A stretch of DNA of 34,977 nucleotides from Alphaproteobacteria bacterium (GTDB taxonomy: Bacteria; Pseudomonadota; Alphaproteobacteria; CACIAM-22H2): positions 1-34,977 of the forward strand of contig VGDA01000002.1 in NCBI GenBank assembly GCA_016869915.1. Reading direction: 5' to 3'. Below, in pieces: positions 1 through 28,491 of this stretch. A program made the position numbers and the translations under genes. The notes below the pieces were generated by a model. It saw only the letters and a list, made by a program, of their open reading frames with translations. It was not told the origin of the DNA and searched no databases. Positions within the stretch are counted from its first letter, which is position 1, and each line of letters starts with the position of its first letter.

Positions 1-156
1 TGAGGAGCGGACGGCGCGGCTCCGGCCCGGGCGCGCGCGGCGGCCCCGCGGGCGGGTGCGATTCCGCCCTTGAAAAACATCCCCGGTTAAATAGATGCTT
101 CGCGCCCCGCCGCCCCGAGGCGTCGGGAAAGCATTTGCGTATCAGGGAGTTGGCGC

Positions 157-1925: not shown

Positions 1926-1929
1926 CCCA

Positions 1930-3876: not shown

Positions 3877-3898
3877 CGCCGCACCGGAGCAGAGCGAC

Positions 3899-4960: not shown

Positions 4961-4970
4961 GCCCTCCTTC
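4948..4970. terminator. GC-rich hairpin between convergent genes (10-bp stem, 3-nt loop)
   Basis: gaaggagggc (4948-4957) pairs perfectly with gccctccttc (4961-4970). The loop tga is the stop codon of the upstream gene. No clear U-tract on either side. Confidence 0.4.
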
Positions 4971-4987
4971 CGCCCGGCGGTGGCTCC

Positions 4988-5452: not shown

Positions 5453-5457
5453 TGCGC

Positions 5458-9741: not shown

Positions 9742-9800
9742 GGTGCGAGGAAGCGCGCGATGGCGGCCGCGCGCTCGTCGGCGGAGCCCGGGCGCTCGAC

Positions 9801-9822
9801 GACCGCATGGCGACCGCATGGC
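9801..9822. repeat. Tandem duplication, 11 bp x2, identical (frame-breaking, 3' end of the double hydrolase gene)
   Basis: gaccgcatggc occurs at 9801-9811 and 9812-9822. Confidence 0.85.
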
Positions 9823-10660: not shown

Positions 10661-10772
10661 GACCGGGTCGCGCGGCGTCTCCTCCAGCCACGCGCCGGTT
10701 CCGTCATAGGCGGGCTGACCGGGTCGCGCGGCGTCTCCTCCAGCCACGCGCCGGTTCCGTCATAGGCGGGCT
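10661..10772. repeat. Tandem duplication, 56 bp x2, identical (frame-breaking, linker of the double hydrolase gene)
   Basis: gaccgggtcgcgcggcgtctcctccagccacgcgccggttccgtcataggcgggct occurs at 10661-10716 and 10717-10772. Confidence 0.97.
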
Positions 10773-11151: not shown

Positions 11152-11457
11152 GCGCGCGGCGAACTCGACGGCGATCGCCGCGCCGGTGTGGTTGCCGTAG
11201 ACCGCGGCGCGCCCGATGCCGAGCGCGGTCAGCGTCTCGGCCATCGCGTCGGCGAAGTCCCGGATCTCCGGCTGGGCGATGTCGAGGCGGTCCGACAGGC
11301 CGAAGCGGGCCGCGAACTCGACCGCGATCGCCGCGCCGGTGTGGTTGCCGTAGGCGGCGGCGCGCCCGATGCCGAGCGCGGTCAGCGTCTCGGCCATCGC
11401 GTCGGCGAAGTCCCGGATCTCCGGCTGGGCGATGTCGAGGCGGTCCGACAGGCCGAA
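11152..11457. repeat. Tandem duplication, 153 bp x2, 5 mismatches (in-frame, 51 aa, first hydrolase domain)
   Basis: 11152-11304 versus 11305-11457. Mismatches at 11155/11308, 11158/11311, 11170/11323, 11201/11354 and 11203/11356. The peptide FGLSDRLDIAQPEIRDFADAMAETLTALGIGRAA(A/V)YGNHTGAAIAVEFAAR occurs twice. Confidence 0.95.
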
Positions 11458-11636
11458 GCCCGGCGTGTCGAAGGCGAGCGCGGTGAAGCGCGTCGCGAAG
11501 ACCTCCTGCTGCATGCGCATGCGCGCCGCCGAGCAGGGCGAGGGATGGAAGAGGCAGACCGCGGGGCCCGACCCGGCGCGCGTGTAGTGCACGCGGCGCT
11601 TGCCGACGGTGACGAAATGGCTGGTGACGCGCGTGC

Positions 11637-13193
11637 TCATGCCGGTCCTCTCCCCTCCCCTGCCGCCCCGAGGCCGAGCACGCCGGGATTCATCCGGCCG
11701 CCCGGGTCGAGCGCGAGCTTGATGCGATGCGCCAGCGCGGCGGCGGCGGGATCGAGAGCCTCCGCGTAGCGATAGAAGCGCCCGAGCTGCGCGTGGACCG
11801 CGCCATGCGCGTCGAGCGCGTCGCGCATGGCCTCGCGCAGGCGCCGCGCGAGCGCGCGTCCCGACGGGTTCGCGGCGAAGGCGCCGAAGCGCGCGCGGTT
11901 ACGCCCGGACATGTGAGCGAGATGGATCGGGTCGAGCGCGTCGGGCCAGTAGAACATCGGCTCGATCGTGACATGCGGCCCGGTCGAGGCGACGAGCCAG
12001 TTCACCGCCATCCCCGCGTCGTCGAGCGCCGCGCGCTCGGCCTCCGCCATCGCCTCGAGCGCGGCAAGGGCCGCGGCGGCGCGCGACAGCGGCAGGATGC
12101 CGTGCACCGGCACCCAGCGCTCGCCCTGCGGCCCGACCATGCCGCGGATCGAGAAGGGCCGCGCGCGCAGGGTGCGCGGGACCACGGCATCGACCTCGCG
12201 GCCCGCGGCGCAGTAGCCACGCACGGCCTCGATGCGCTCGGCCGCGGCGCGCTCGCTCTCCGCCTCGGCCGTGACATGCAGCGACCATGGCGCGTCGTCG
12301 CCGCCGCCAAGGCCAGCCTTCGCGAGGCGCGCCGCGTCGCGCAGCGCCTGGACCGGCGACGTGGCGGCGGCGACCACGGCGCCCAGCGTGCGCGCGGCCT
12401 CGCCCGCGTCGAGGCTGCGCGCGCCCTCCGACCTCAGCCGGTCGAGCGCGAAGGCGCGCGTCGCGGCGCCCGCGCGCATCGTCGCGACCATCGCCTCCGC
12501 GATGTCGCTGCCGCGCGCGAAGGCGAAGGACGCGAAGGCGGCGGGCCGCTCCGGCACGAGGCGCAGCGCGAGCTCGGTCTTGATGCCGAAGGCGCCGCAA
12601 TCGCCGAGGAACAGGCCGGTCAGGTCCGGCCCGTGATGGCGCCAGGACCCCTCGCCGCCCGGCTGCGCGAGCGCGCCGGCGCGCGCGAGGCTGCCATCCG
12701 CCAGCACCGCCTCGACGCCGATGAAGCCCTCCATCGAGCCGGGAAGGTTCTGCGACGCCGCGCCGCCGATGGTGGAGTGGCTGCCGCTGATGGGCGCCGC
12801 GACCGCCGCGCGCAGGCCGTGGCGCGACGCGGCCTCGGCCAGCGCCTCCCAGGTCGCGCCCGCGCCGACGCGCGCGCGCAGGTCGCCGGCATCGATCGAG
12901 ACATGGTCGAGCCGCCGCGTGTCGAGCACCGCGACGCGCGGTGCATGCGGCACGGCGCCGCCGGTATAGGAAAGCCCGGCGCCACGCGGCACGACCGAGA
13001 AGCCAGCGGCGGCGAGCAGCCGCACGGCCTCGGCTGCCTCGGCCGCGGAGCCGGGGCGCAGCAGGAGGTCCGGCGGCACCGCGCCCGGCCACTCGAAGAC
13101 GTCGGATCCGGCGAGCGCCAGTTCGGCCGGATCGCGCGATACATGCGCCTCGCCCAGCGCGGCCGCGAGCGCGTCGCGCAGCGCCGCGCTCAT
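11637..13193 (-). CDS. FAD-binding oxidoreductase (PCMH-type FAD_binding_4 / GlcD-like)
   Basis: Starts MSAALRDAL at 13191-13193 inside the longer 723-aa ORF. Has VVPRGAGLSYTGG and GPDLTGLFLGDCGAFGI motifs typical of FAD-linked oxidases. ATGA overlaps occur at both ends (13190-13193 and 11637-11640). Confidence 0.8.
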   Translation of the reverse strand: MSAALRDALAAALGEAHVSRDPAELALAGSDVFEWPGAVPPDLLLRPGSAAEAAEAVRLLAAAGFSVVPRGAGLSYTGGAVPHAPRVAVLDTRRLDHVSIDAGDLRARVGAGATWEALAEAASRHGLRAAVAAPISGSHSTIGGAASQNLPGSMEGFIGVEAVLADGSLARAGALAQPGGEGSWRHHGPDLTGLFLGDCGAFGIKTELALRLVPERPAAFASFAFARGSDIAEAMVATMRAGAATRAFALDRLRSEGARSLDAGEAARTLGAVVAAATSPVQALRDAARLAKAGLGGGDDAPWSLHVTAEAESERAAAERIEAVRGYCAAGREVDAVVPRTLRARPFSIRGMVGPQGERWVPVHGILPLSRAAAALAALEAMAEAERAALDDAGMAVNWLVASTGPHVTIEPMFYWPDALDPIHLAHMSGRNRARFGAFAANPSGRALARRLREAMRDALDAHGAVHAQLGRFYRYAEALDPAAAALAHRIKLALDPGGRMNPGVLGLGAAGEGRGPA

Positions 13194-14158
13194 CCCGGCA
13201 GCTTGAACAGCCGCAGCGCGTTGTCCCGCAGGATCTTGCGCAGCGGCACGGGCCGGAAGGCCAGCGCCTCGACCTCCTGCATCGCGCGCTCCGGCTCGAT
13301 GACGGAGAAGTCGGTGCCGAAGAGGAACTTGTCCTGCCCGAAGGTGTTGGCGAAGTGCACGACGCTGGCGGGCCAGTGCTTGGGCGCGTAGGCGTCCCCC
13401 GCCATGAACACGTTCGGGTGCTTGAAGGCGACGGCGACCATCTCCTCGTGCCACGGCCAGCCGAGATGGATCCCGATGATGTTCAGCTCGGGGAAGTCGA
13501 GCGCGACGCGGTCGAGCGCGATTGGCCGGCCGACGGAGGGCAGCCGCCGGTCCTTCGAGTAGAGGAGGCAGTGCCCGACCTGCAGCATGATCGGGATGCC
13601 GAGTTCGGCGCAGCGTGCGTAGTAGGGATAGAAGATCGCGGCGTCGGGCGCGGCCTCGAACCAGTGCGGGTAGAGATGCGCGCCGACGAAGCCGTATTCG
13701 TGCACGGCGCGGTCGAGTTCCTTCAGGCCCGCGATGCCGCGCGTCGGGTCGATCCCGGCCAGGCCGGAGAAGCGCCCGGGATGGGCGGCGCAGATGTCGC
13801 GCACCCATTCGTAGGGAATCTCGGTCGAGCCGCGGATCCTGCGGTCGCCGCAGCGCGCGGCGACGAGCAGCGTGCGCTCGATCCCGGCGCGGTCCTTCTT
13901 GTCGAGATAGGCCTCGATCGTGACGCCGCGACGCTGGCCCGGGTCGTAGCCGACCTTGTCGCGGAACCCGTCATCGACCGGGATGCGGCCCTCGGCGTAG
14001 GCCTCGGGCGTGTGGACATTGGCGACGATGTCGATCGCCCCGAAGCCGAGGCGGGTGCGCGAAGCGTCGAAGTCGTGGTGCGCCACGTCCTGTGCCTCCG
14101 GGGCGAGTCGATGCGAGCAGCGATCAAGGCGGAACGCGCCGGGCATGGCAAGGCCCAA
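13190..14158 (-). CDS. Amidohydrolase-2 family metal-dependent hydrolase/decarboxylase (ACMSD/LigW/LigI-like)
   Basis: 322-aa ORF with N-terminal AIDIVANVHTPE, GFVGAHLYPH and C-terminal FLFGTDFS, resembling the amidohydrolase_2 fold. The start is uncertain and a later start is possible. Confidence 0.65.
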   Translation of the reverse strand: MGLAMPGAFRLDRCSHRLAPEAQDVAHHDFDASRTRLGFGAIDIVANVHTPEAYAEGRIPVDDGFRDKVGYDPGQRRGVTIEAYLDKKDRAGIERTLLVAARCGDRRIRGSTEIPYEWVRDICAAHPGRFSGLAGIDPTRGIAGLKELDRAVHEYGFVGAHLYPHWFEAAPDAAIFYPYYARCAELGIPIMLQVGHCLLYSKDRRLPSVGRPIALDRVALDFPELNIIGIHLGWPWHEEMVAVAFKHPNVFMAGDAYAPKHWPASVVHFANTFGQDKFLFGTDFSVIEPERAMQEVEALAFRPVPLRKILRDNALRLFKLPG

Positions 14159-14222
14159 ACCCCCTTCCCCGCCGCGCGGATCTGGACGACCCTTCGCGCC
14201 GGAGAACAGCGAGGGCAGGCAC

Positions 14223-15432
14223 GTGCCGATCCAGATCCCGTCCGAGGACGACCATCGCGACCTGCGCGACGCCGTGCGGTCGCTCTGCGCGCGCTTCGAC
14301 GGCGCCTACTGGCGGCGCGTCGACGAGGCGCGCGGCTATCCCGAGGAATTCGTCGCCGCGCTGACCGGCGCCGGATGGCTCGCGGCGCTCGTGCCCGAGG
14401 AACATGGCGGCGCGGGTCTCGGCTTGACCGAGGCCTCCATCGTCATGGAGGAGATCAACCGCTCGGGCGGCAACTCGGGCGCGGTCCACGGCCAGATGTA
14501 CAACATGTCGACGCTGCTGCGCGCCGGCTCGCCGGAGCAGAAGGCACGCTACCTGCCGCGCATCGCGTCGGGCGAGCTGCGCCTGCAGTCGATGGCCGTC
14601 ACCGAGCCGACCACGGGCACCGACACGACGAAGCTGCGCACGACCGCGACGCGCCGCGGCGACCGCTGGGTCCTGAACGGCCAGAAGGTCTGGACCTCGC
14701 GCCTGCAGCATTCAGACCTGATGATCGTGCTGGCGCGCACGACGCCGATCGAGCGGGTGCGCAGGAAGTCGGAGGGGCTCTCGGTCTTCCTCGTCGACGT
14801 GCGCGAGGCGCTGGCCGGCGGCATGTCCGTGCGCCCGATCCGCAACATGGTGAACCACGAGACCAACGAGGTCTTCTTCGACGGCGTCGAGATCCCCGGC
14901 GACGCGCTGGTGGGGGAGCAGGATCGCGGCTTCCGCATCATCCTCGAGGGACTGAACGCGGAGCGCGTGCTGATCGCCGCGGAATGCGTCGGCGACGCGT
15001 ACTGGTTCGTCGACCGCGCGCGCGCCTATGCCGGCGAGCGCGTCGTCTTCGACCGGCCGATCGGCCGGAACCGGCGAGCGCGTCGTCTTCGACCGGCCGA
15101 TCGGCCGGAACCAGGGCATCCAGTTCCCGATCGCGCGCGCCTACGTCAACGCGCGCGCCGCAGACGCGATGCGCTACCAGGCGGCTGCGCTGCACGACGC
15201 GGGCCGCCCCTACGGCGCCGAGGCAAACATGGCGAAGCTGCTCTGCGCCGACGCATCCTGGGAGGCGGCGAATGCCTGCCTGCAGACGCATGGCGGCTTC
15301 GGCTTCGCCGCCGAGTACGACATCGAGCGCAAGTTCAGGGAGACCCGGCTCTACCAGGTCGCCCCGATCTCGACGAACCTCATCCTCGCCTACGTGGGCG
15401 AGCACGTGCTCGGCATGCCGCGCTCCTACTGA
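14223..15432 (+). pseudogene. Acyl-CoA dehydrogenase; frame broken as written by a 40-bp tandem duplication
   Basis: GTG at 14223 with GAGGG upstream. The N-terminal and middle domains lie in the frame of ORF 14010-15518 (...AYAGERVVFDRPIGRN). The C-terminal domain lies in ORF 15028-15432 (GERVVFDRPIGRNQGIQFPIA...HGGFGFAAEYDIERKFRETRLYQVAP...). GERVVFDRPIGRN is shared at the repeat. Confidence 0.85.
15031..15110. repeat. Tandem duplication, 40 bp x2, identical (frame-breaking, acyl-CoA dehydrogenase)
   Basis: ccggcgagcgcgtcgtcttcgaccggccgatcggccggaa occurs at 15031-15070 and 15071-15110. Confidence 0.97.
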
Positions 15433-15447
15433 GCGCGGCCGCGCCGC

Positions 15448-16566
15448 TCAGGTCTCCAGCGCCTTGGCCGGGTCCTCGAACGCCTCGCCCAGCGCCGCGG
15501 CCACCGCCGCGTGCGTGATCCTGCCGCCATGGACGTTGAGGCCGTTGCGCAGGTGCGGGTCCTCGGCCAGCGCGCGCATCGCGCCCTTGTCCGCAAGCGC
15601 CAGCACGTAGGGCAGCGTCGCGTTGTTGAGCGCGACGGCCGAGGTGCGCGGCACGCCGCCCGGCATGTTCGTCACGCAATAGTGGATGACGTCGTCGACG
15701 ACGTAGGTCGGCTCGTCATGCGTGGTCGGGCGCGAGGTCTCGAAGCAGCCGCCCTGGTCGATGGCGACGTCGACGACGACGGAGCCCGGCTTCATCCGCC
15801 GGATGAGGTCGGCGCCGACCAGCCTCGGCGCCGCGGCGCCGGGGATCAGCACCCCGCCGATGACGAGGTCGGCCGCGGCGACGTGCTGCTCGACCGCGTC
15901 GCGGGTCGAGAACACGGTGTTGAGCGGCCGGTCGAACTGGGTCCAGAGGCGGCGCAGCACGTCGACGCTGCGGTCGAGCACCCAGACATCCGCGCCCATG
16001 CCGAGCGCGATGTGGACGGCGTGCGTGCCCACCACGCCGCCGCCCAGCACGACGACCTTCGCGGGATCGACGCCGGGCACGCCGCCGAGCAGCATGCCGA
16101 GGCCGCCATGCGCCTTCTCCAGGAAATAGGCGCCGACCTGGATCGACATCCGTCCCGCGACCTCGGACATCGGCGCGAGCAGCGGCAGCCCTCCGGATGG
16201 CGAGGTCACCGTCTCGTAGGCGATGCAGGTCGCGCCGCTGCGCATGAGGTCGTGCGCCTGCGCCGGGTCGGGCGCGAGGTGCAGGTAGGTGAACAGGACC
16301 TGCCCGCGCCGCAGCATCGCGCGCTCCGCGGCCAGCGGCTCCTTCACCTTCACGATCATGTCGGCCGCGGCGAACACCGAGGCGGCATCGGCCGCGATCC
16401 GCGCGCCCGCCGCCTCGTAGTGTGCGTCGGTCATGCCGATGCCGGCGCCGGCGCCGCGCTCGACGACGACCTGGTGGCCATGCGCGACGACCTCGCGGAC
16501 ATTCGTGGGCGTGAGCCCCACCCTGTACTCGCGGACCTTGATCTCCTTCGGAACGCCGATGAGCAT
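15448..16566 (-). CDS. ald: Alanine dehydrogenase
   Basis: [21 protein letters not shown]-terminus, [16 protein letters not shown]-binding motif and [10 protein letters not shown] prefer the start at 16564-16566. Confidence 0.92.
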
Positions 16567-16623
16567 GGGACCTCCCAGGGGCAGAGCTGCCTCGATACTA
16601 TCCCGCCAGCATGGGGTGTTCAC

Positions 16624-17423
16624 GTGACCAAAGCGTTGCGAGGCGCCATCTACCCAGACCTCGAGGGCAAGGCCGTTCTGGTCACGGGCGGCGGCTCGGG
16701 CATTGGCGCCGCCATCGTCCGCGCCTTCGCCCGGCAGAAGGCCCTCGTGGGCTTCGTCGACGTCAAGCGCGCGGAGTCCGAGGCCCTCGTCGCGGAACTG
16801 CGCGCCGGCGGCGCGCGGGTCGCCTTCGCGCCGGCGGCGCGCGGGTCGCCTTCGCGCAGGCCGACATCACCGACACGGCCGCCCTGCGCGCGGCGATCGC
16901 GGCGCTGCGCGCCGAGATCGGCGCCTTCGCGGTGCTGGTCAACAACGCGGCGCACGACGAGCGCCACCGGACCGAGGACGTGACCCCGGAATACTGGGAC
17001 CAGCGCATCGCGGTGAACCTCAAGCACCAGTTCTTCGCCGCGCAGGCCGTCCTGCCCGACATGAAGGCCGCGGGCGCCGGCGCGATCGTCAATTTCGGCT
17101 CCACCTCCTGGATGGCGGGCCAGGGCGGCATGGCGGCCTACACGGCGGCCAAGTCCGCTGTCCTCGGCCTCACCCGGTCGCTTGCCCGCGACTACGGGCC
17201 GCATGGCATCCGCGTGAACGCCATCGCGCCGGGCTGGATCATGACCGAACGGCAGGTCTCGCTCTGGCTGACCCCGGAGGGCGAGGCGGAGCTGATGCGC
17301 AGGCAATGCCTGAAGCGCAAGCTGGCCCCGGACGAGGTGGCGCGCTTCACCGTCTTCCTCGCCTCCGAGGAGGCCTCGGCCTGCACCGCCCAGCACTACG
17401 TGGTCGACGGCGGCTGGACCTGA
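16624..17423 (+). pseudogene. Short-chain dehydrogenase/reductase (SDR); frame broken as written by a 26-bp tandem duplication
   Basis: GTG at 16624. The N-terminus VLVTGGGSGIGAAIV...AGGARVAF lies at the tail of ORF 15511-16983. The remainder (AGGARVAFAQADITD...NNAA...YTAAK...VVDGGWT) lies in ORF 16611-17423, in a different frame. Confidence 0.85.
16802..16853. repeat. Tandem duplication, 26 bp x2, identical (frame-breaking, SDR)
   Basis: gcgccggcggcgcgcgggtcgccttc occurs at 16802-16827 and 16828-16853. Confidence 0.93.
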
Positions 17424-17529
17424 CGGCCAGTCGGGTCTGGCGGGTCCGGCGCGGCGGATCTATCCTGCGCGCATCGCGCGGCTGGGCCTTCCCGGCGCGC
17501 GCCTCATTCAGGCCCCGAGGGGAAGCGCC

Positions 17530-18873: not shown

Positions 18874-18927
18874 CGCAGGGACCGGGGGCCGGCGCGGCGC
18901 GCCGGCCCCTCCCCCGCCAATCCCGCC

Positions 18928-19866
18928 ATGGCCTATCCCAAGTCCGTCCGGATCTGCGACGTCGGCACGCGCGACGGCTTCCAGATCGAGCACGACTTCA
19001 TCCCGACGCGCGACAAGATCGCGACCATCGACGACATCGTCGCCGCGGGCGTGCGCAAGCTCGAGGTGACGTCCTTCGTCAGCCCGCGCGCCGTGCCGCA
19101 GATGGCCGACGCGGCCGAGGTGCTCGCCGGCATCGACAAGGGGCCGGGCGCGGAGTTCGTGGCCCTCGTGCCGAACCTGCGCGGCGCCGAGAACGCCGCG
19201 AAGGCCGGCGCGCGCAGCATCCTGCTCTTCGTCTCCGCGTCGGAGACCCACAACGCCACCAACGTGAACCGTCCCATCGCGGCGTCGCTGGACGGCTTCC
19301 GCGAGGTCATGGCGCTGGCCGCGCGCCACGGCATGGCCGTGCATGGCGCGATCTCGACCTCCTTCGGCTGTCCCTTCGAGGGCGACGTGCCCGCGCGCCA
19401 GGTCGCCTCGATCGCGAGGCAGATGCGCGAGATGGGCATCCGCCACGTCGCGCTCGGCGACACGACCGGCATGGCGACGCCGCCGCTCGTGCGCGCCGCG
19501 GTCGAGGCCGTGCGCGCCGCCTGCCCCGACCTCGCGATCGCGCTGCATTTCCACAACACCCGCGCGCTCGGCCTGGTCAACGTGATGGCGGGCCTCGAGC
19601 TCGGCATCACCGAGTACGAGGGCAGCATCGGCGGGCTTGGCGGCTGCCCCTTCGCACCGGGCGCGACGGGCAATGTCTGCACCGAGGACATGGTGAACCT
19701 GATGCACGAGCTCGGCATCGAGACCGGCATCGACCTCGAGGCGCTCTGCTCCGTGGCCCGCAAGGTCGAGGCGATGCTGGGCCGCCAGCTTCCCGGCCAG
19801 GTCATGAAGGCGGGCCCGCGCAGCCGCCTCTCGGGCATCGACTGCGCCGTCCGCGCCGTGGGCTGA
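18928..19866 (+). CDS. Hydroxymethylglutaryl-CoA lyase-like (HMGL family) enzyme
   Basis: 312-aa ORF with the VGTRDGFQ motif and HFHNTRALGLVN metal-binding motif on a DRE-TIM scaffold. Confidence 0.85.
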   Translation: MAYPKSVRICDVGTRDGFQIEHDFIPTRDKIATIDDIVAAGVRKLEVTSFVSPRAVPQMADAAEVLAGIDKGPGAEFVALVPNLRGAENAAKAGARSILLFVSASETHNATNVNRPIAASLDGFREVMALAARHGMAVHGAISTSFGCPFEGDVPARQVASIARQMREMGIRHVALGDTTGMATPPLVRAAVEAVRAACPDLAIALHFHNTRALGLVNVMAGLELGITEYEGSIGGLGGCPFAPGATGNVCTEDMVNLMHELGIETGIDLEALCSVARKVEAMLGRQLPGQVMKAGPRSRLSGIDCAVRAVG

Positions 19867-19992
19867 CCGGAGACGGCAGCGGCCAGCCTGCCCACGGAAC
19901 GGGCTGTTTCCGGGCCACCGTTGCCCATGGCCGCGCCACCGGCCGGGTTGAGGCGGGCGGGGCGCTGCGTTAGCGTCATCGGGCATCCGCGG

Positions 19993-20046
19993 CCTCAGGC
20001 ACGACAATGCCGGCGGCCACCTCAGGCACGACAATGCCGGCGGCCA
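19993..20046. repeat. Tandem duplication, 27 bp x2, identical (intergenic, upstream of the ABC binding-protein gene)
   Basis: cctcaggcacgacaatgccggcggcca occurs at 19993-20019 and 20020-20046. It ends about 28 nt before the ATG at 20074. Confidence 0.95.
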
Positions 20047-20073
20047 TAACGCCTCGCACCAGGGAAGGTGACC

Positions 20074-21240: not shown

Positions 21241-21250
21241 CGTCCCGGGA

Positions 21251-21278
21251 GCCCCTTCCGCGCCCGCGCGGAAGGGGC
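21251..21278 (+). promoter_or_regulatory. Intercistronic stem-loop (12-bp perfect stem, 4-nt loop) between the binding-protein and ATPase genes
   Basis: gccccttccgcg (21251-21262), loop cccg, then cgcggaaggggc (21267-21278). It lies 11 nt after the SBP stop and 30 nt before the ATPase ATG. Confidence 0.6.
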
Positions 21279-21307
21279 CTCCCCCAGCCTCTTTCCAGCG
21301 TGACCAC

Positions 21308-22531
21308 ATGAGCGCCGACGTCGAACTCGACCGGGTGACGATCCGCTTCGGGTCGTTCACGGCCGTCAGGGATGCCTCGCTGAAGATCGCCGGCGGCGAG
21401 TTCTTCAGCCTCCTCGGGCCTTCCGGCTGCGGGAAGACCACCCTCCTGCGCACCATCTCCGGGTTCCTCGACCCGTCCGAGGGCAGCGTGCGCATCGGCG
21501 GCGAGGACATGCGCGGCATCGAGCCCAACCGGCGCCCGACCGCGCTCATCTTCCAGAACCTCGCGCTCTTCCCGCTGATGACCGTGGCCGACAACATCGC
21601 CTACGGGCTCAGGGTGCGCGGCGTCCCGCGCGCGCAGCGCATGGCGCGCGCGGCGGAGCTGCTGTCGCTCGTCGCGCTGCCGGACCAGGGACACAAGCGC
21701 GTGAGCGAGCTGTCCGGCGGCCAGAAGCAGCGCGTGGCGATCGCGCGCGCGCTCGCCGTCGAGCCCAAGGTCCTGCTCCTCGACGAGCCGCTCTCCGCGC
21801 TCGACCTCAAGCTGCGCCAGCACATGCGCAACGAGCTGCGCGCGATCCAGAAGCGCGTAGGCATCACCTTCATCTACATCACGCACGACCAGGGCGAGGC
21901 CCTGACCATGTCCGACCGCATCGCTGTCATGAACCACGGGGTGGTCGAGCAGGTGGGCACGGGGCGCGAGATCTACGCGGACCCGCGCACGCCCTTCGTC
22001 GCCTCCTTCTTCATCTACATCACCCACGACCAGGGCGAGGCCCTGACCATGTCCGACCGCATCGCGGTCATGAACCACGGGGTGGTCGAGCAGGTGGGCA
22101 CGGGGCGCGAGATCTACGCGGACCCGCGCACGCCCTTCGTCGCCTCCTTCGTCGGCGAGAACAACGGCATCGAGGGGCGCATCGCAAGCGTCGACGGCGC
22201 GCGCGCGGCGATCGACACGCCGCTCGGCCGCCTCGTCGGCCGCCGCGGCGAGGGCGCGGCGGCTGGCCGCGCCGGCACGATCTTCGTGCGGCCGGAGAGC
22301 CTGCGCGTCGCCGCGCCCGGCACGGATGCCGCGCTCGCGGCGGAGATCGTCTCCACTGCCTTCGAGGGCAGCACGACGCATGTCTTCCTGCGCGCCGCCA
22401 GCGGGCAGGCGCTCACCATGACCGTCGACATGCGCGAGGCCGCCACGCTGCCCGCGCCGGGCGCGACGCTCCGCCTCTCCTGCGACGAGGGCGAGGCCAT
22501 CGTGCTGGCCACCGACGGCAAGGGCGCATGA
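21308..22531 (+). CDS. ABC transporter ATP-binding protein (PotA-like); carries an in-frame 141-bp tandem duplication
   Basis: Walker A GPSGCGKTT, signature LSGGQKQRVAIARAL, Walker B LLLDEPLSALD. The 47-aa block FIYITHDQGEALTMSDRIAVMNHGVVEQVGTGREIYADPRTPFVASF (H-loop onward) is present twice. Confidence 0.85.
   Translation: MSADVELDRVTIRFGSFTAVRDASLKIAGGEFFSLLGPSGCGKTTLLRTISGFLDPSEGSVRIGGEDMRGIEPNRRPTALIFQNLALFPLMTVADNIAYGLRVRGVPRAQRMARAAELLSLVALPDQGHKRVSELSGGQKQRVAIARALAVEPKVLLLDEPLSALDLKLRQHMRNELRAIQKRVGITFIYITHDQGEALTMSDRIAVMNHGVVEQVGTGREIYADPRTPFVASFFIYITHDQGEALTMSDRIAVMNHGVVEQVGTGREIYADPRTPFVASFVGENNGIEGRIASVDGARAAIDTPLGRLVGRRGEGAAAGRAGTIFVRPESLRVAAPGTDAALAAEIVSTAFEGSTTHVFLRAASGQALTMTVDMREAATLPAPGATLRLSCDEGEAIVLATDGKGA
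21869..22150. repeat. Tandem duplication, 141 bp x2, 2 mismatches (in-frame, 47 aa, PotA-like ATPase)
   Basis: 21869-22009 versus 22010-22150. Mismatches at 21883/22024 (acg/acc, Thr) and 21925/22066 (gct/gcg, Ala). Confidence 0.97.
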
Positions 22532-23547
22532 GCAACCCGCTCACCGCGGCGATCCTCTTCGCGACGCCTCTGGCGGTCGCGCTGGCGTTCTGGCTGCTCG
22601 CGCTGCGCGACCGGCGCCGCGCGGGCGATCCGGGATCGACAGGCTTCTTCCGACGCAACGGACCGGTCGTCGGCGCGTTCCTGCTCGCGGCGACGACGTT
22701 CTGGATCCTGTTCATGATCGTCTGGCCGATGCTCTACATGGTCGACTACTCGTTCCACCGTAAGCTGCCGCCGTCGCGGCGCGGCGGGCCGGACGACGTC
22801 TACACGCTCGAGAACTACTGGTACTTCGTCTACGGCAGCACACGCGTCTTCACGAGCTACAACTGGGTGCACATCAACGCGTTCTGGCAGACGATCGCGG
22901 TCAGCGTCGTCATCACCGTCGCCAACTTCGCGATCTGCTACCCGCTCGCCTACTACATGGCGCAGGTCGCCAGGCCAGGCCGCCTGCGCGTACTGCTGCT
23001 GCTGCTGATCGTGCCCTACTGGGTCAACGAGATCCTGCGCGCCTTCGCCTTCATGGTCCTGTTCGGGACCGGCGGGACGATCAACAAGCTGCTGCTGGCC
23101 ATGGGCGCGATCTCGGCACCGATCGACTTCATCGGCCTGAACGTCGCGCTCTATTCCGGGCTGACCTACGCCTACCTGCTGCTCATGGTCTTCCCTCTCT
23201 ACAACGCGATCGAGAGCCTGGACCACAACCAGGTCGAGGCGGCACGCGACCTGGGCGCGCCATGGTGGCACATCCACCTCTTCGTGGTGATGCCCTTCGC
23301 CAAGCCGGGCATCGCCTCGGGCTGCACGCTCGTCTTCATGCTCGCGGCCGGCGCGCTGGCCGCGCCGCTCGTGCTCGGCGGTCCGAAGACACTGTGGTTC
23401 ACGCCGATCGTCTACGACCGCTTCTACCAGGCGTTCAACTGGCAGCAGGGCTCGGCCTACGCGATCATCCTGCTGCTCACCTGCGTCGCCTTCGTGATGG
23501 CGGTGATGCGGCTGTTCAAGGTCAGCCTGTCGGAGATCACGCGATGA
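22528..23547 (+). CDS. ABC transporter permease (PotB-like)
   Basis: 339-aa multi-pass protein with EAA motif EAARDLGAPWWHIHLFVVMPFAKPG. ATGA overlap with the ATPase stop. Confidence 0.85.
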   Translation: MSNPLTAAILFATPLAVALAFWLLALRDRRRAGDPGSTGFFRRNGPVVGAFLLAATTFWILFMIVWPMLYMVDYSFHRKLPPSRRGGPDDVYTLENYWYFVYGSTRVFTSYNWVHINAFWQTIAVSVVITVANFAICYPLAYYMAQVARPGRLRVLLLLLIVPYWVNEILRAFAFMVLFGTGGTINKLLLAMGAISAPIDFIGLNVALYSGLTYAYLLLMVFPLYNAIESLDHNQVEAARDLGAPWWHIHLFVVMPFAKPGIASGCTLVFMLAAGALAAPLVLGGPKTLWFTPIVYDRFYQAFNWQQGSAYAIILLLTCVAFVMAVMRLFKVSLSEITR

Positions 23548-24404
23548 CCTCGCGCTCCGTCCACCGGACGATGATCGGCTTCTACATCGCCCTGTTCTTC
23601 GCCTTCCTGTTCGGGCCGCTCGTGGTGATGGGCATCACGGCCTTCAACACGCCCAGCTATCCCCAGGTCTGGCCCTTCGAGGGATTCACGCTGCGCTGGT
23701 TCAAGGCGCTGCTGGCGGACCGCACGCTGATGGAGGGCTTCCGCAACAGCCTCCTGATCGGCACGCTCGTCGTCTGCCTCGCCGTGCCGCTCGGCCTCGC
23801 CGCCGCGATCGTGATGACGCAGGTCCACGCGCGGGCACGGTCGCTCTACTACCTCGTGGTCGTCTCGCCGGTGCTGACGCCCGGCGTCATCCTCGGCATC
23901 TCGACCGTGATCTTCTGGAGCGACGTCACGCGCTGGACCGGCGCGCAGGGCCTCTACAACGGCATCTTCCTGGCGACGCTCGGCCAGTCGACCTTCATCT
24001 CCGCCTACTGCATGCTGATCTTCATGTCGCGGCTGCAGCGCTTCGACCGCGCCCAGGAGGAGGCGGCGCTCGACCTCGGCGCGTCGCGCACCCAGGTCTT
24101 CTTCCATGTCCTGCTGCCGTTCCTGAAGCCCGCGCTGCTCTCGGCGGCGGTGCTCGCCTTCCTGTCGAGCTTCGAGAACTACAACACCACGACCTTCGCC
24201 ATCCTGGCGGACAAGACGCTGACCACGGCGCTGGCGGGGCGCGTGCGCCAGGGGACCACGCCCGCGATCAGCGCCCTCGCGGTCCTAATCACCGGCGTGA
24301 CCCTCGCCGGCGCGCTCCTCTACGAGTTGCTGCGCCGGCGCGAGCAGGCGCGCGACGAGGCGCGCGCCCTCGCGGCAGCGGCTGCGGAGCGCGCGGGGAC
24401 CTGA
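23544..24404 (+). CDS. ABC transporter permease (PotC-like)
   Basis: ATG at 23544 (ATGA overlap), inside ORF 23262-24404. EAA motif EAALDLGASRTQVFFHVLLPFLKPA. Confidence 0.85.
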   Translation: MTSRSVHRTMIGFYIALFFAFLFGPLVVMGITAFNTPSYPQVWPFEGFTLRWFKALLADRTLMEGFRNSLLIGTLVVCLAVPLGLAAAIVMTQVHARARSLYYLVVVSPVLTPGVILGISTVIFWSDVTRWTGAQGLYNGIFLATLGQSTFISAYCMLIFMSRLQRFDRAQEEAALDLGASRTQVFFHVLLPFLKPALLSAAVLAFLSSFENYNTTTFAILADKTLTTALAGRVRQGTTPAISALAVLITGVTLAGALLYELLRRREQARDEARALAAAAAERAGT

Positions 24405-24411
24405 CCGGCCC

Positions 24412-24678
24412 TCAGCCGATCTCGGCCAGGCTGCGGTCGGCGCCGCAGTAGCGGCGCACGGCCAGCGCCCAGTTCTCCCCCTTCCCGAAACGCCCTTCGG
24501 CGGCGCGGTCCAGGATCCCGCGGCGGACCAGCCCATCGACCGTGCAGGTCATCGCGGAGCGGCTCGGGTAATGGCCGAGGCGGCGCAGGTGACCGCGCAG
24601 TTCCTCGAACTCCCTCGGCTCCTCGGCGACCGCGGCGATGACGACGCGCTGCCAGGCGCCAACGGTGAAATCCAGCAT
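24412..24678 (-). CDS. Small hypothetical protein, possibly winged-helix DNA-binding
   Basis: Likely start MLDFTVGAW inside ORF 24412-24747. The pattern REFEELRGHL...SRSAMTCTVDGLVRRGILDR...GKGENWAL resembles helix-turn-helix plus wing. This is not a confident family assignment. Confidence 0.35.
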   Translation of the reverse strand: MLDFTVGAWQRVVIAAVAEEPREFEELRGHLRRLGHYPSRSAMTCTVDGLVRRGILDRAAEGRFGKGENWALAVRRYCGADRSLAEIG

Positions 24679-24756
24679 TCGGCTCTCCCTCCGATGTCGA
24701 GGCCGGCGCTCGACTGCGCCGCCACCCCAATCTCGAGGACCCACCATGACGGGGCG

Positions 24757-24852
24757 GAATTACCTGAAAGTTTATTCGTCTTCTTTTCTTTTTCCCGAGC
24801 TGCGATCCTGCTTGAGGAGTACAGTATTAATCGTTTTACTTCAAATAGATAG
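24757..24852. promoter_or_regulatory. Anomalously AT-rich intergenic island
   Basis: aattacctgaaagtttattcgtcttcttttctttttcccgag...gtacagtattaatcgttttacttcaaatagatagg sits in an otherwise extremely GC-rich window. It lies upstream of the minus-strand small ORF. It contains a plus-strand TTGAGG-N17-TTTACT promoter-like pair at 24812-24840. Confidence 0.4.
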
Positions 24853-24979
24853 GAGCCAGACTTGCAGTCACGGCTGCGTTCGAAGGCCGACCAGGGATGC
24901 CCCGTCGCGCCAGCCGGAGGGCCGTGATCTCGCTCCTGCCAGGGATCTGTTAATCCGGAGGGACGCCGGATCGACGGCC

Positions 24980-25771
24980 TCAGGCGAGCAGGAAACCGGC
25001 GACCAGCCGCTCGAACTCGGCCTGGAAGCAGTGGTTGTAGAAATGCCCGCCGGTGGGCATCAGCGACAGCCGCGCATCGGGGATCCGTCGCGCGAGATCC
25101 TCGCTGAAATAGGACGGGGTCACGGCGTCGTCGCGCGCGGCGCTGACCAGCGTCCGCTGCCGGATGCGCCCGACCTCCGCCGCGCGGTCGAAGGCGAGGA
25201 TCGCCGCGATGCGGGCGAGGACGATGCGGTCCTCGGTCGGCGGCACGGGAGAGGCGGCCTGCGCCGCCTCGAGTTCGTCCGCGTGGCGGGAGAGCCACCA
25301 TGGCGGATACAGGACGAGGTTGCCGAGCTGGCCGTAATAGCCGCGGCCGAGGCGCTCCATCCCCTGCGCGCGCGTGGCGAAGAGCCGGCGGAAATAGCCG
25401 TCGGCGCGGGTCCAGGTCGCGCTGAGGACGAGCCTGTCGATGCGGTCGGGGGCGTCGAGGGCGATGGTCTGCCCGATGGCGCCGCCGGTCGAATGGCCGA
25501 CCAGATGGGCGCGCGCGATCCCGAGCGCGTCCATGAGCTGCAGCACGTCGTCGGCCATCTGGCCGACCGAATAGGCGACGTCGGATGGCCCGCTGCGCCC
25601 GCAGCCGCGATGGTCGTGAAGCACCACCGTGAAGTCGCGCGCGAGCGCGGGAACGTGGCGCTGCCAGAACGTGGCGATGCCGCCCAGCCCGGGCACGAGG
25701 AGCAGCGGCGGCCCGGAGCCGTGGGTCTCGTAGTGGAGCCCCGCGCCGTCGCGCAGCCTCAGGAGCGGCAC
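24980..25771 (-). CDS. Alpha/beta hydrolase (3-oxoadipate enol-lactonase-like)
   Basis: 263-aa ORF with canonical nucleophile elbow LVGHSTGGAIG, HGSGPPLLLVPGLGG N-terminal motif and C-terminal GGHF. Confidence 0.8.
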   Translation of the reverse strand: MPLLRLRDGAGLHYETHGSGPPLLLVPGLGGIATFWQRHVPALARDFTVVLHDHRGCGRSGPSDVAYSVGQMADDVLQLMDALGIARAHLVGHSTGGAIGQTIALDAPDRIDRLVLSATWTRADGYFRRLFATRAQGMERLGRGYYGQLGNLVLYPPWWLSRHADELEAAQAASPVPPTEDRIVLARIAAILAFDRAAEVGRIRQRTLVSAARDDAVTPSYFSEDLARRIPDARLSLMPTGGHFYNHCFQAEFERLVAGFLLA

Positions 25772-25777
25772 GAGGGG

Positions 25778-26314
25778 TCAGCGCCCCGTCGAGGAGGCCG
25801 GCTCCTGGCGGCTCGATGCGCCGTCGAGGCCGGCGAAGACCGTGCGACGCTCGATCTCGGCGACGTTGTCCGGGCGCGCGAAGGGCTCCGGCGCGGGCTC
25901 GCCGGGGCTGCGCGGGCGGCCGATGCCCGCGAAGAAGTTCTCGAGGCCCGGCGGCGACAGCACCCAGAGCATCTTCATCTCCGTCGTGCCCTCGTTGACG
26001 AACTTGTGCTTGCGCCACGGGCCCAGGTAGATCGTCGTGCCAGGGCGGATGGGATGCGGCACGCCGTCGACATAGGCCGTGCCCTCGCCCTGCACGAAGT
26101 GTAGCAACTCCTCGTTCTGGTCGTGCCAGTGCTCGCGGATGTAGCAGCCGGGCGCGATGGTCTGGATGCCCATCGACAGCGTGCGCGAGCCGGTCATCTC
26201 CGGGGTGACGTGGACGTCGCTGTATCCGTTGGCGGGGACCGGCTGCCAGTAGCTGCGCGCCTCGCCGGGCTGAACGACCACCGCCTCGCCGCGCTTCGTC
26301 GCACCATCGTCCAT
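25778..26314 (-). CDS. Cupin domain protein
   Basis: 178-aa ORF with cupin motif 1 (PGCYIREHWHDQNEELLHFVQGEG) and motif 2 (GTTIYLGPWRKHKFVN). Ends 6 nt upstream of the hydrolase gene. Confidence 0.7.
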   Translation of the reverse strand: MDDGATKRGEAVVVQPGEARSYWQPVPANGYSDVHVTPEMTGSRTLSMGIQTIAPGCYIREHWHDQNEELLHFVQGEGTAYVDGVPHPIRPGTTIYLGPWRKHKFVNEGTTEMKMLWVLSPPGLENFFAGIGRPRSPGEPAPEPFARPDNVAEIERRTVFAGLDGASSRQEPASSTGR

Positions 26315-26391
26315 CGCGATGCTCCCTCGTGAGAAGACGCGCGATCCTAGCGCGGCTTGACGCGCCGCTTCCAGACGCCGCTAATCGGCCG

Positions 26392-27777
26392 ATGACCGAT
26401 CCCGCCGACCTGTCCGCCGTCGACATGCTTGCAGCATTCGCCGCGAGGCGCCTCTCCCCGGTGGAGGTGCTCGAGGCGGTCCTGGCGCGGATCGACCGCG
26501 CGGAGCCGTCGCTCCGCGCCCTCTACGCCCTCGATCCCGACGGCGCCCGCGCCGCGGCGCGGGAGAGCGAGGGGCGCTGGCTGCGCGGAGAGGCGCGCGG
26601 CCTCGAGGGCGTGCCCGCGACGATCAAGGAGAACATCGCCACGCGCGGCGTCCCCGTCCCGCTCGGCACGGCCGCGCGCGACCTCGTGCCAGCGCCCGCG
26701 GACGCGCCTCCCGCGGCGCGGCTGCGCGAGGCGGGCGCGGTGATCGTCGCCAAGACCACGATGCCCGACTACGGGATGCTCTCCTCGGGCCTCTCGAGCT
26801 TCCACCAGCCGGCGCGCAATCCCTGGAACACGGCGCTCAACCCCGGCGGCAGCTCCGCCGGGGCCGGCGCGGCCGCGGCCGCGGGCTACGGGCCGCTGCA
26901 TGTCGGCACGGACATCGGCGGCTCGATCCGCCTGCCTGCCGCGTGGTGCGGCGTCGCGGGGCTGAAGCCCAGCCTGGGCCGCGTGCCCATCGACCCGCCC
27001 TATTACGGCCGCGTCGCCGGCCCGATGACGCGCGAGGTGCGCGACGCGGCGCTGATGATGCGCGAGCTGTCGCGCCCGGACTGGCGCGATTCGATGAGCC
27101 TGCCGCCGCAGGCCATCGACTGGATGGACCTCAATCGCGACGTCCGCGGGCTGCGCGTGGGGCTCTGGCTCGATGCCGGGTTCGGCCTGCCCGTGGAGCC
27201 GGAGATCCGCGCCGCGGTGTCCGACGCGGCGCGGCGCTTCGCCGACGCCGGCGCGCATGTCGAGCCGATGGAGAGCTTCGTCACGCGGCGCATGCTCGAC
27301 GGGCTGGATGCGTTCTGGCGGCTGCGCAGCTGGACGGACATCTCCACCCTGCCCGCCGCGCGGCGCGAGAAGGTCCTTCCCTACATCCTGCGCTGGGCCG
27401 AGGGCGGGGCCGACCTGTCGGCCGAGGACGCGTATCACGGGATGAGCCAGATGATGGCGATGCGCGAGGCGGCGGTGCGCGCCTGCCAGCCCCACGACCT
27501 CGTGCTCTCGCCCGTCGCGCCCTGCGTGCAGTTCCCTGCGGAGTTCGCCGGCCCCACGAACGATCCCGCGCGGCCACTCGAGCACATCGGCTTCACCGTC
27601 GCATTCAACATGTCCGAGCAGCCGGCGATCTCCGTGAACGCGGGATGGACCCGCGACGGCATGCCGATCGGCCTGCAGATCGCCGGCCGGCGCTTCGACG
27701 ACCTCGGCGTGCTGCGCGCGGCGCGCGCCTGGGAGGCGATGCGCGGCCCGCAACGCCCCTGGCCGCGGATCGATTGA
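26392..27777 (+). CDS. Amidase (amidase-signature family, GatA-like)
   Basis: Start MTDPADLS at 26392 inside ORF 26329-27777. AS signature GGSSAGAGAAAAAGYGPLHVGTDIGGSIRLPAAWCGV, with the upstream catalytic Lys context TIKENI. Confidence 0.9.
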   Translation: MTDPADLSAVDMLAAFAARRLSPVEVLEAVLARIDRAEPSLRALYALDPDGARAAARESEGRWLRGEARGLEGVPATIKENIATRGVPVPLGTAARDLVPAPADAPPAARLREAGAVIVAKTTMPDYGMLSSGLSSFHQPARNPWNTALNPGGSSAGAGAAAAAGYGPLHVGTDIGGSIRLPAAWCGVAGLKPSLGRVPIDPPYYGRVAGPMTREVRDAALMMRELSRPDWRDSMSLPPQAIDWMDLNRDVRGLRVGLWLDAGFGLPVEPEIRAAVSDAARRFADAGAHVEPMESFVTRRMLDGLDAFWRLRSWTDISTLPAARREKVLPYILRWAEGGADLSAEDAYHGMSQMMAMREAAVRACQPHDLVLSPVAPCVQFPAEFAGPTNDPARPLEHIGFTVAFNMSEQPAISVNAGWTRDGMPIGLQIAGRRFDDLGVLRAARAWEAMRGPQRPWPRID

Positions 27778-27854
27778 ACCTTGCAAGGCTGCGCGGCGGG
27801 GATTAACCCCTCGCGGGCGGGCGCCATGCCCGCGACGCCGAGGAGAGACACCAC

Positions 27855-28491
27855 ATGCGCTTGCGCCCAGCCTCCGCCGCCATCGCCCTCGCGGCCACGG
27901 CCTTCCTCGTGCTCGCGGCACCCGCCCCGCCATGGCGGGAAATCCGCTCGACGACTCGGCTGCCTGCGCCGGCTCCCTGATCGGCAACGCCACGGCGGAT
28001 CTCTCGCAGGGGCGCGAGGACCGGTTCGACGAGGGCGTCGACCTCGCCTATGCCGGCTACCTCACCCATGTCTTCGCGGCCAAGGGCGCGTACAAGCAGG
28101 CCGACCTCGAGCTCGCCGACAAGATCCTCGCCATCAACACCGACCGCGTCATCTCTCGCAGGGCCGCGAGGACCGCTTCGACGAGGGCGTCGACCTCGCC
28201 TATGCCGGCTACCTCACCCATGTCTTCGCGGCCAAGGGCGCGTACAAGCAGGCCGACCTCGAGCTCGCCGACAAGATCCTCGCCATCAACACCGACCGCG
28301 TCATCGAGGCCGCGAATTCCAATGCCTTCGACGCCGAGGTCTACGAGCAGATCGTCGCCTGCTCGCAGTTCCTCGCGCTCCAGGTCATGCGCAACGCGGC
28401 CGTCTACGCCGACAACGCCAAGCGCATCGCCGCGCTCTCGGCCGACAACAAGAACCGCATCCGCAGGCTGGTGAAGGCCGGCCGCCGCTGA
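27855..28491 (+). pseudogene. Hypothetical (probably secreted) small protein; disrupted as written by a 152-bp tandem duplication and possibly a 1-nt indel after the signal peptide
   Basis: ATG at 27855 has a strong aggaga SD and encodes signal-like MRLRPASAAIALAATAFLVLAAPAP, but this frame stops at about 27980. The mature part MAGNPLDDSAACAG...DRFDEGVDLAYAGYL... starts at 27932 in another frame with no SD. It then shifts frame again at the 152-bp repeat and finishes in ORF 27781-28491. Confidence 0.45.
27999..28302. repeat. Tandem duplication, 152 bp x2, 2 mismatches (frame-breaking, hypothetical secreted protein)
   Basis: 27999-28150 versus 28151-28302. Mismatches at 28012/28164 (ggg/ggc) and 28024/28176 (cgg/cgc). 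Confidence 0.97.

Follow-up and report, generated by a model that had tools for sequence, protein, structure and literature searches.

Two classes of false duplication have been described in genome assemblies. In false heterotype duplications, two diverged haplotype paths are both kept in a linear assembly, where they can mimic duplications of exons or genes (PMC8081667, PMC9516828). In false homotype duplications, the end of a contig dovetails with its neighbour over about one read length, and the overlap stands in tandem after scaffolding (PMC8081667). In the cited description of the latter class, a gap lies between the copies (PMC8081667, Extended Data Fig. 5b).

The tandem duplications described here are found in a contig of an alphaproteobacterium, which was analysed as a whole stretch of 34,977 nucleotides (hereafter the window). 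They share features with the first class and may share some with the second. As in the false heterotype duplications (Rhie et al. 2021; Ko et al. 2022), the copies of three long pairs in the window carry haplotype-specific variants; the "haplotypes", however, are those of co-existing strains, and both alleles occur as single copies elsewhere. Unlike the heterotype cases, which come from diploid vertebrates and often span kilobases to megabases, the present units measure 141-153 bp and lie in a bacterial metagenome. Of the alternative path, the window also retains no more than the final 26-58 nt, with no gap between the copies. A possible resemblance to false homotype duplications lies in ten perfect duplications of 9-72 bp and in the size of the long ones, about 150 bp. 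In contrast to that class, the window contains no Ns at the joins, and most of its overlaps fall well short of one read length.

True tandem paralogues are also present in the window, as two genes for cyclophilin-type peptidyl-prolyl isomerases (Table 1). In the corresponding region of a related contig, L094, two Pro_isomerase genes were called separately. Both the isomerase pair and the long pairs are adjacent direct repeats within coding sequence. The isomerase pair, however, consists of whole genes that are about 80% identical, whereas the long pairs are gene fragments that are 97-99% identical and absent from the relatives.

Results

Tandem duplications in the window

Tandem repeats in the 35-kb window were defined by TRF and by exact copy-to-copy comparison (Table 1). 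In all, 13 sequences of 9-153 bp occur twice in tandem in the window, more than the first-pass annotation listed. Seven of the 13 lengths are multiples of three and six duplications break reading frames, and the length of a duplication is therefore independent of the reading frame. As the first-pass annotation had noted, differences between copies are limited to the three long pairs, with two differences each in the 141-bp and 152-bp pairs; the shorter duplications are all perfect. Each of the nine mismatches in the long pairs is located within 58 nt of the start of its unit.

Table 1. Tandem duplications and tandem paralogues in the window
Feature	Position	Strand	Gene	Observations
72-bp duplication, x2	1127..1270		ABC-2 permease	Perfect
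Isomerase gene, first	4988..5461		Cyclophilin-type peptidyl-prolyl isomerase	True tandem paralogue
Isomerase gene, second	5458..6003		Cyclophilin-type peptidyl-prolyl isomerase	True tandem paralogue
21-bp duplication, x2	7506..7547			Perfect; preceding base 7505 private to the window
39-bp duplication, x2	8708..8785		Acyl-CoA synthetase	Perfect; preceding base 8707 private to the window
11-bp duplication, x2	9800..9821		Hydrolase, 3' end	Perfect; frame broken
56-bp duplication, x2	10661..10772		Hydrolase	Perfect; frame broken; preceding base 10660 private to the window
153-bp pair	11152..11457			Two-copy repeat, period 153; 5 mismatches, at 11155, 11158, 11170, 11201, 11203
153-bp unit, copy 1	11152..11304	-	Two-domain alpha/beta-hydrolase	C, G, G, A, C at offsets 3, 6, 18, 49, 51
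153-bp unit, copy 2	11305..11457	-	Two-domain alpha/beta-hydrolase	G, C, C, G, G; second-strain haplotype; in-frame, +51 aa
40-bp duplication, x2	15031..15110			Perfect; frame-breaking; full ORF of 460 aa restored on collapse
26-bp duplication, x2	16801..16852			Perfect; frame-breaking
27-bp duplication, x2	19993..20046			Perfect
141-bp pair	21868..22149			Two-copy repeat, period 141; 2 mismatches, at 21883, 21925
141-bp unit, copy 1	21868..22008	+	PotA-type ABC-transporter ATPase	G at offset 15, T at offset 57
141-bp unit, copy 2	22009..22149	+	PotA-type ABC-transporter ATPase	C and G; second-strain haplotype; in-frame, +47 aa
152-bp pair	27999..28302			Two-copy repeat, period 152; 2 mismatches, at 28012, 28024
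152-bp unit, copy 1	27999..28150	+	Small hypothetical protein (161 aa in relatives)	G at offsets 13 and 25
152-bp unit, copy 2	28151..28302	+	Small hypothetical protein	C and C; second-strain haplotype; frame shift +2
9-bp duplication, x2	33278..33295			Perfect; absent from L098
13-bp duplication, x2	34537..34562			Perfect; frame-breaking; absent from L098

The junction of the 153-bp pair is ambiguous by 2 nt, and base 11305 may be part of the left-hand piece. The long units of 141, 152 and 153 bp are close to one 150-nt read, and the other lengths, 9-72 bp, match no single k. Taken together, the overlap lengths (9-153 bp) and the overhangs past the last SNP (101, 83 and 126 nt) fit no single k-mer size. 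The k values 21, 39 and 141, which are among the defaults of MEGAHIT, coincide with three of the unit lengths, but the remaining lengths do not match in this way. Separately from the duplications, the window lacks 1 nt in a run of C at ~27921, a deletion private to it.

Inside the 152-bp duplication, near 28150-28200, the phase of GC3 shifts from 0 to 2, and one ORF is recovered when this duplication is collapsed. The claim of the first-pass annotation that this duplication destroys the reading frame is thereby confirmed. Full-length ORFs were regained after collapsing the frame-breaking duplications, and the hydrolase protein from the collapsed sequence matches Pfam Abhydrolase_1. The collapsed ABC ATPase has 360 aa and is 100% identical to protein P0002, which is encoded on 4 contigs. 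The 407-aa product of the uncollapsed gene, on the other hand, stands alone in the list of 120 homologues, the majority of which have ~360 aa.

Codon positions of the mismatches

Since GC3 is ~0.95, the reading frame is unambiguous, and the codons at the mismatches could be read out explicitly. The 153-bp pair shows GCG/GCC twice and GCC/GCG twice (Ala) and GTC/GCC once (Val/Ala, second position). An earlier tally of the five differences, including the single Val/Ala change, was correct, but its division of the alanine codons into three GCG/GCC and one GCC/GCG was not. The 141-bp pair shows ACG/ACC (Thr) and GCT/GCG (Ala), and the 152-bp pair shows GGG/GGC (Gly) and CGG/CGC (Arg). Eight of the nine mismatches are therefore at third positions, and all eight are synonymous.

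The probability of eight or more of nine was 9.7e-4 under a null of 1/3, in agreement with the value near 1e-3 given previously, and 0.008 when the null was adjusted for the concentration of G/C sites at third positions (p = 0.44); because the nine sites form three linked blocks, these binomial figures overstate their independence. Between the window and related contigs, 67-74% of the real differences are at third positions, and eight of nine would be unremarkable under p = 0.75 (P = 0.30). Given this share among natural SNPs, the codon positions of the copy differences fit SNPs between strains.

Replication slippage does give rise to tandem duplications that are tens to hundreds of bp long. 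The long pairs could in principle be real duplications of this origin, the mismatches being later mutations, and at a few boundaries there is possible microhomology of 1-5 nt (right extension). Microhomology at the boundaries is, however, no more than expected by chance. In addition, mutations in a frame-broken gene are expected at random codon positions, against the eight of nine third positions observed (P about 1e-3). The evidence from related contigs given below also opposes slippage, which we regard as extremely improbable.

Single-copy relatives and the origin of each allele

A set of 120 related loci was collected. In the relatives that span the duplications of the window, which are 82-100% identical and come from assemblies made independently (JGI, ENA, Logan and NCBI), the sites are single copy in 84 of 84 locus-by-site observations, and these relatives include contigs that are 99.9-100% identical to the flanks of the duplications. 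None of the 120 related loci contains a junction 28-mer, and no tandem duplication of period at least 11 was found in about 87 kb of related contigs (L001-L011).

The short duplications are specific to the window. The 72-bp site is single copy in six contigs (L092-L097), which encode a 244-aa permease, and the 27-bp site is single copy in L001, L003 and L117. L007 and L094 are single copy at the 21-bp site, where the preceding base is C in both contigs vs T in the window, and they also lack the 11-bp duplication.

When the related contigs were searched for the variants of the long pairs, both variants of the 152-bp and 141-bp pairs were found exactly and in single copy, within intact genes. 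At 100% identity, L001 matches copy 1 of the 152-bp pair and nine contigs (L098-L106) match its copy 2. For the 141-bp pair, copy 1 is identical to seven contigs (L001-L004 and L117-L119) and copy 2 to L120. Copy 2 of the 153-bp pair corresponds to single-copy L094 except for the ambiguous first base, 11305. The alleles of copy 1 of this pair are split, those at offsets 3, 6 and 18 occurring in L007 and those at offsets 49 and 51 in L008; as one complete haplotype (C, G, G, A, C), copy 1 was not found in the related contigs, where only its two halves occur.

A model in which the copies were identical at birth and later acquired unrelated changes was rejected, since all nine differing sites are alleles of single-copy haplotypes. 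Against slippage, each allele of copy 2 matches a haplotype already present in other contigs. The copies diverge by 2.0% (9/446), equal to the divergence between the two haplotypes found in the relatives (about 1.8-2%). Between the window and L001, a contig free of the duplications, the divergence is 0.1%, about 20 times lower. If the mismatches had arisen by mutation after slippage, the duplications would be far older than the split from single-copy L001.

It was also considered that the long pairs are untrimmed overlaps in which low coverage at the contig ends had led to sequencing or consensus errors, seen as mismatches. The clustering of the mismatches near the start of the right-hand piece, within its first 58 nt, would agree with such errors, as would private oddities of the window (positions 7505, 8707 and 10660 and the C-run deletion). 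Errors, however, do not favour synonymous third positions, and the nine copy 2 alleles are all found exactly in independent assemblies (L094, L120 and L098-L106). This origin of the mismatches is very unlikely, and for the nine sites it is refuted by the exact haplotype matches. The private bases in front of three short duplications (7505, 8707 and 10660) are a different matter; they are a detail outside the prediction of the join model, and they are possibly sequencing or consensus errors.

Strain haplotypes at the probable joins

At least two strains, here called H1 and H2, occur in the population; they belong to one species and are ~98% identical. One sample, 3300021376, yields both an H1-type contig (L118) and an H2-type contig (L098). 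Compared with the window, H2 differs densely as far as offset 51 of the 153-bp unit, offset 57 of the 141-bp unit and offset 25 of the 152-bp unit. Past the last SNP, it is identical to the window for at least 270 nt, ~300 nt and ~660 nt in the same order. Since the differences of H2 end early in each unit, no mismatch is found past its first 58 nt. The two strain paths thus come together at each of the long joins, which mark the border from divergent to shared sequence. Downstream of the 152-bp and 141-bp joins, the window is again H1 (L001), not H2. At the 72-bp join, the window has four differences from L092 in 1-1198 and none in 1199-5293, which fits a haplotype switch (P about 0.003).

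Discussion

On these observations, the long pairs are very probably assembly artefacts in which two strains' versions of one segment were joined in tandem with their overlaps untrimmed. The first-pass annotation had proposed two diverged strain alleles placed end to end by a mis-join; this reading is supported by the single-copy occurrence of the variants elsewhere and by the lack of the duplication in relatives.

The scaffold-like metagenome contig, from an uncultured freshwater organism, would consist of shorter pieces concatenated without removal of their overlaps, and each untrimmed overlap would read as a two-copy tandem duplication. At a long pair, the left piece follows H1 through the divergent block and stops 83-126 nt inside the stretch common to the strains. 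The right piece starts on the H2 path 26-58 nt ahead of this common stretch, crosses it and goes on as H1. Placed end to end, the two pieces give a unit of 141-153 bp twice, differing only at the last SNPs between H1 and H2. The joining step may have been that of a scaffolder, a merger or a gap closer, and the size of 141-153 bp may correspond to about one 150-nt read. We infer that the perfect duplications of 9-72 bp are joins of the same kind, in which the overlap holds no strain difference.

The SNPs between H1 and H2 would have accrued while purifying selection acted on two intact genes, each present in single copy, and such an origin accounts for copy differences that are almost all synonymous third-position changes. 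It had been pointed out that differences between alleles under purifying selection are paradoxical in a duplication that breaks the frame. The paradox is resolved, because the differences are older than the join and it is irrelevant whether the join kept or broke the frame.

There is another interpretation, in which the duplications are real and arose by unequal homeologous recombination, incoming H2 DNA having recombined in one lineage at a shifted register with the H1 copy already there, so that an H1 copy came to lie beside one with an H2 tip. Both haplotypes are indeed real, with H1-type and H2-type contigs in the same samples, and the tips of copy 2 are true H2 sequence and not errors. 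Nevertheless, 13 independent events in 35 kb would be required, at least six of them frame-breaking, while the affected genes are otherwise 99.9-100% identical to intact orthologues and the duplication occurs in none of the 84 locus-by-site observations in other assemblies. With lengths of only 26-58 nt and positions exactly at the boundary between the copies, all three H2 tracts look typical of graph tips and not of recombination tracts. A second mechanism would be needed for the ten short perfect duplications, which hold no foreign alleles. We consider this recombination origin improbable to a high degree. There is likewise little chance that the junctions as a whole are real, one lineage having recombined out of register, in a burst, with DNA of a sister strain that is 98% identical, and having undergone slippage as well, with 13 duplications in 35 kb of which several inactivate genes. 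If they were real, the genome would be in an acute state of hyper-recombination or decay.

Untrimmed joins of strain alleles belong to a class of error already known for genome assemblies, found here in a metagenome contig. With 13 spurious duplications, six frameshifts and split genes, the contig is unfit for use as it is. The joins inflate proteins, as in the ABC ATPase of 407 aa in place of the real 360 aa, and public protein collections hold such join products, for example the singleton cluster P0001. A strong synonymous excess between tandem copies may serve as a diagnostic that distinguishes concatenated strain alleles from real duplication, and the clustering of mismatches at one end of the unit may be a further diagnostic of such concatenation. 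The biological importance of the finding is low; its practical value is that of a quality flag for the contig and its gene calls.

Tandem duplications and reading frames

A full scan of the window showed 13 two-copy tandem duplications in 35 kb, with periods of 72, 21, 39, 11, 56, 153, 40, 26, 27, 141, 152, 9 and 13. The ten short duplications are perfect; the first-pass annotation, too, had seen copy-to-copy differences in the three long ones only, and its counts for these were reproduced both by TRF and by direct comparison (Table). The G+C content of the window is 70-75%. Third codon positions are about 0.95 G+C, which makes the reading frames unambiguous. Six of the 13 lengths (11, 56, 40, 26, 152 and 13) are not multiples of three, and at these six duplications the GC3 phase shifts exactly as predicted; this bears out the claimed frame break at the 152-bp duplication. 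When one copy was removed (collapsing), long ORFs were regained: a 460-aa ORF, a 360-aa ABC ATPase, a two-domain alpha/beta hydrolase and a small hypothetical protein. The affected genes serve ordinary functions in metabolism and transport. Related contigs totalling about 87 kb contain no tandem duplication with a period of at least 11.

Table. Repeats and duplicated genes of the window
Feature	Position	Strand	Description	Basis
Imperfect two-copy tandem repeat	11152-11457		period 153, 5 mismatches	TRF and direct comparison
Imperfect two-copy tandem repeat	21868-22149		period 141, 2 mismatches	TRF and direct comparison
Imperfect two-copy tandem repeat	27999-28302		period 152, 2 mismatches	TRF and direct comparison
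Two adjacent cyclophilin-type peptidyl-prolyl isomerase genes	4988-5461 and 5458-6003	minus	repeat family D1, about 80% identical over 300 nt	

Comparison of the left (copy 1) and right (copy 2) units of the three long pairs placed all nine mismatches within the first 58 nt of the units. The codon read-out gave four Ala changes of the GCG/GCC type, GTC/GCC (Val/Ala), ACG/ACC, GCT/GCG, GGG/GGC and CGG/CGC. Eight of the nine differences are thus synonymous third-position changes and one is a second-position change, which bears out the reported third-position excess (P for at least eight of nine, 9.7e-4 under a uniform 1/3 null). The four Ala changes also stood, but they divide two and two rather than three and one, the sole slip in that account. 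Base composition alone was rejected as the cause: a composition-aware null, which takes the enrichment of G/C sites at third positions into account (p = 0.44), still gave P = 0.008.

Single-copy alleles in related contigs

The window was compared with 120 related public contig loci (L001-L120). Among labelled MAGs, those closest to it are 'Alphaproteobacteria bacterium', 'Pseudomonadota bacterium' and 'Tagaea sp.'; the source organism is an uncultured alphaproteobacterium. The 27-, 141- and 152-bp duplications are absent from L001-L004, which were found through the ABC ATPase protein and are 99.3-99.9% identical to the window. Likewise, the duplications at 7506, 8708, 9800, 10661, 11152, 15031 and 16801 are absent from L007, L008 and L012, the 72-bp duplication from L092-L097, and the 9- and 13-bp duplications from L098. 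All 84 locus-by-site observations showed a single copy, and the junction 28-mers were found in none of the 120 loci.

The alleles of both copies of all three long pairs occur as single-copy sequences in these contigs. L001 matches copy 1 (G, G) of the 152-bp pair exactly, and nine contigs assembled by JGI, ENA and Logan (L098-L106) match copy 2 (C, C) exactly. For the 141-bp pair, exact matches to copy 1 (G, T) are L001-L004 and L117-L119, and L120 is an exact match to copy 2 (C, G). The copy 2 haplotypes of these two pairs came only from contigs reached via further protein clusters; the first relatives (L001-L006) carry copy 1 alleles only. L094 agrees with copy 2 of the 153-bp pair (G, C, C, G, G) at every base but the first, which may be part of the left piece, the junction being ambiguous by 2 nt. 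The copy 1 alleles of the 153-bp pair are split over two contigs (C, G, G in L007; A, C in L008). Since the copy 1 and copy 2 alleles of this pair occur in other contigs, the Val/Ala site is a natural amino-acid polymorphism too. These exact haplotype matches rule out random errors as the source of the mismatches.

Anatomy of the joins

Haplotype H2, the haplotype of the contigs with copy 2 alleles, shares about 98% identity with the window. Differences between the two are dense just left of each unit and reach offsets 51, 57 and 25 inside the 153-, 141- and 152-bp units; beyond these offsets the sequences agree over at least 270 nt, about 300 nt and about 660 nt, respectively. The left piece of the window therefore runs on the other haplotype (H1) through the divergent block and ends 101, 83 and 126 nt inside the shared block, and the right piece begins on the H2 path, 52, 58 and 26 nt ahead of the shared block. 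Past the shared block the window is H1 again, in agreement with L001 rather than with L098 or L120. A fixed k-mer overlap (length k or k-1) was rejected, since 13 lengths of 9-153 and overhangs of 101, 83 and 126 nt fit no single k.

Such an arrangement is expected if two strain paths merge in the assembly graph and one contig retains a short tip of the alternative path; concatenation of the two overlapping contigs then writes the unit twice. An origin of this kind accounts for four features. The mismatches lie at one unit end. The copy divergence (9/446, 2.0%) equals the inter-strain divergence and is about 20 times the 0.1% separating the window from the single-copy L001. The differences are almost all synonymous, and 67-74% of natural SNPs at these loci fall on third positions. 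The frame-breaking 152-bp case resembles the in-frame ones. The single-copy haplotypes and the join anatomy support the main interpretation of the first-pass annotation, namely two strain alleles placed end to end. That the junctions do not exist physically is a conclusion drawn from assembled contigs.

The base directly before copy 1 is private to the window at 7505 (T), 8707 (G) and 10660 (A); L007 and L094 carry C in all three places. The difference at 10660 changes an amino acid (Ser versus Ala). The three adjoin perfect short duplications (7506, 8708 and 10661). The chance of three private bases at such spots was estimated at about 1e-5, given about 1% local divergence. They are too frequent for chance and suggest that the overlaps were delimited by mismatches.

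Piecewise identity and small variants

Window 1-1198 differs from L092 at four places, 47, 141 (a 1-nt insertion), 228 and 609, whereas 1199-5293 is 100% identical to it (0 differences). The same four differences are common to L093 and L094, and some of them to L095-L097. The pattern resembles a change of haplotype precisely at the 72-bp join, and hints at a piecewise origin of the window. Identity to L007 falls from about 99.7% to about 90-95% at about 16200-17500 and at 19700-20040; these blocks may reflect strain recombination or mosaicism, or chimerism in L007. That every between-join segment comes from a different strain seems doubtful: the switch is clear at 1199, but the L007 drop at about 16.2 kb is not at a join, and the block starts in general are not.

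At about 27921, the C run in GGCACCCGCCCCGCC is one base shorter than in the related contigs examined (CCCC in L001, which L098-L101 and L104 equal in length). The missing base, probably either an error in homopolymer length or a frameshift private to the window, shortens the upstream part of a 161-aa hypothetical-protein ORF called in relatives. At window 3520-3543, an in-frame stretch of 21 nt of the ABC_transp_aux gene is missing from L096, whose product has 641 aa instead of 648 aa; this resembles natural indel polymorphism in low-complexity sequence.

Relation to known false duplications

The Vertebrate Genomes Project described false heterotype duplications, in which divergent haplotype paths are both kept (PMC8081667; see also PMC9516828), and false homotype duplications, in which a contig-boundary overlap, often one read long, stands in tandem after scaffolding (PMC8081667). 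The window shows both kinds in miniature, with strains in place of parental haplotypes; its joins, however, have no N gap and its overlaps are much shorter. A literature search for metagenome-specific descriptions of such a tandem-join artefact found none of direct relevance. The cyclophilin-type pair is a genuine old tandem gene duplication and a useful contrast, since the corresponding neighbourhood of L094 contains two adjacent Pro_isomerase genes as well.

The pairs are almost certainly an assembly artefact of a known kind, of low interest save as a quality flag and a diagnostic pattern. The 407-aa ABC ATPase P0001 (21308-22531), a singleton cluster in the public protein collection, is artefactual. 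Its collapsed form is 100% identical to the cluster P0002 (360 aa, four contigs). A length of about 360 aa is shared by most of the 120 ATPase homologues listed. P0001 is thus an example of how such joins seed spurious protein variants.
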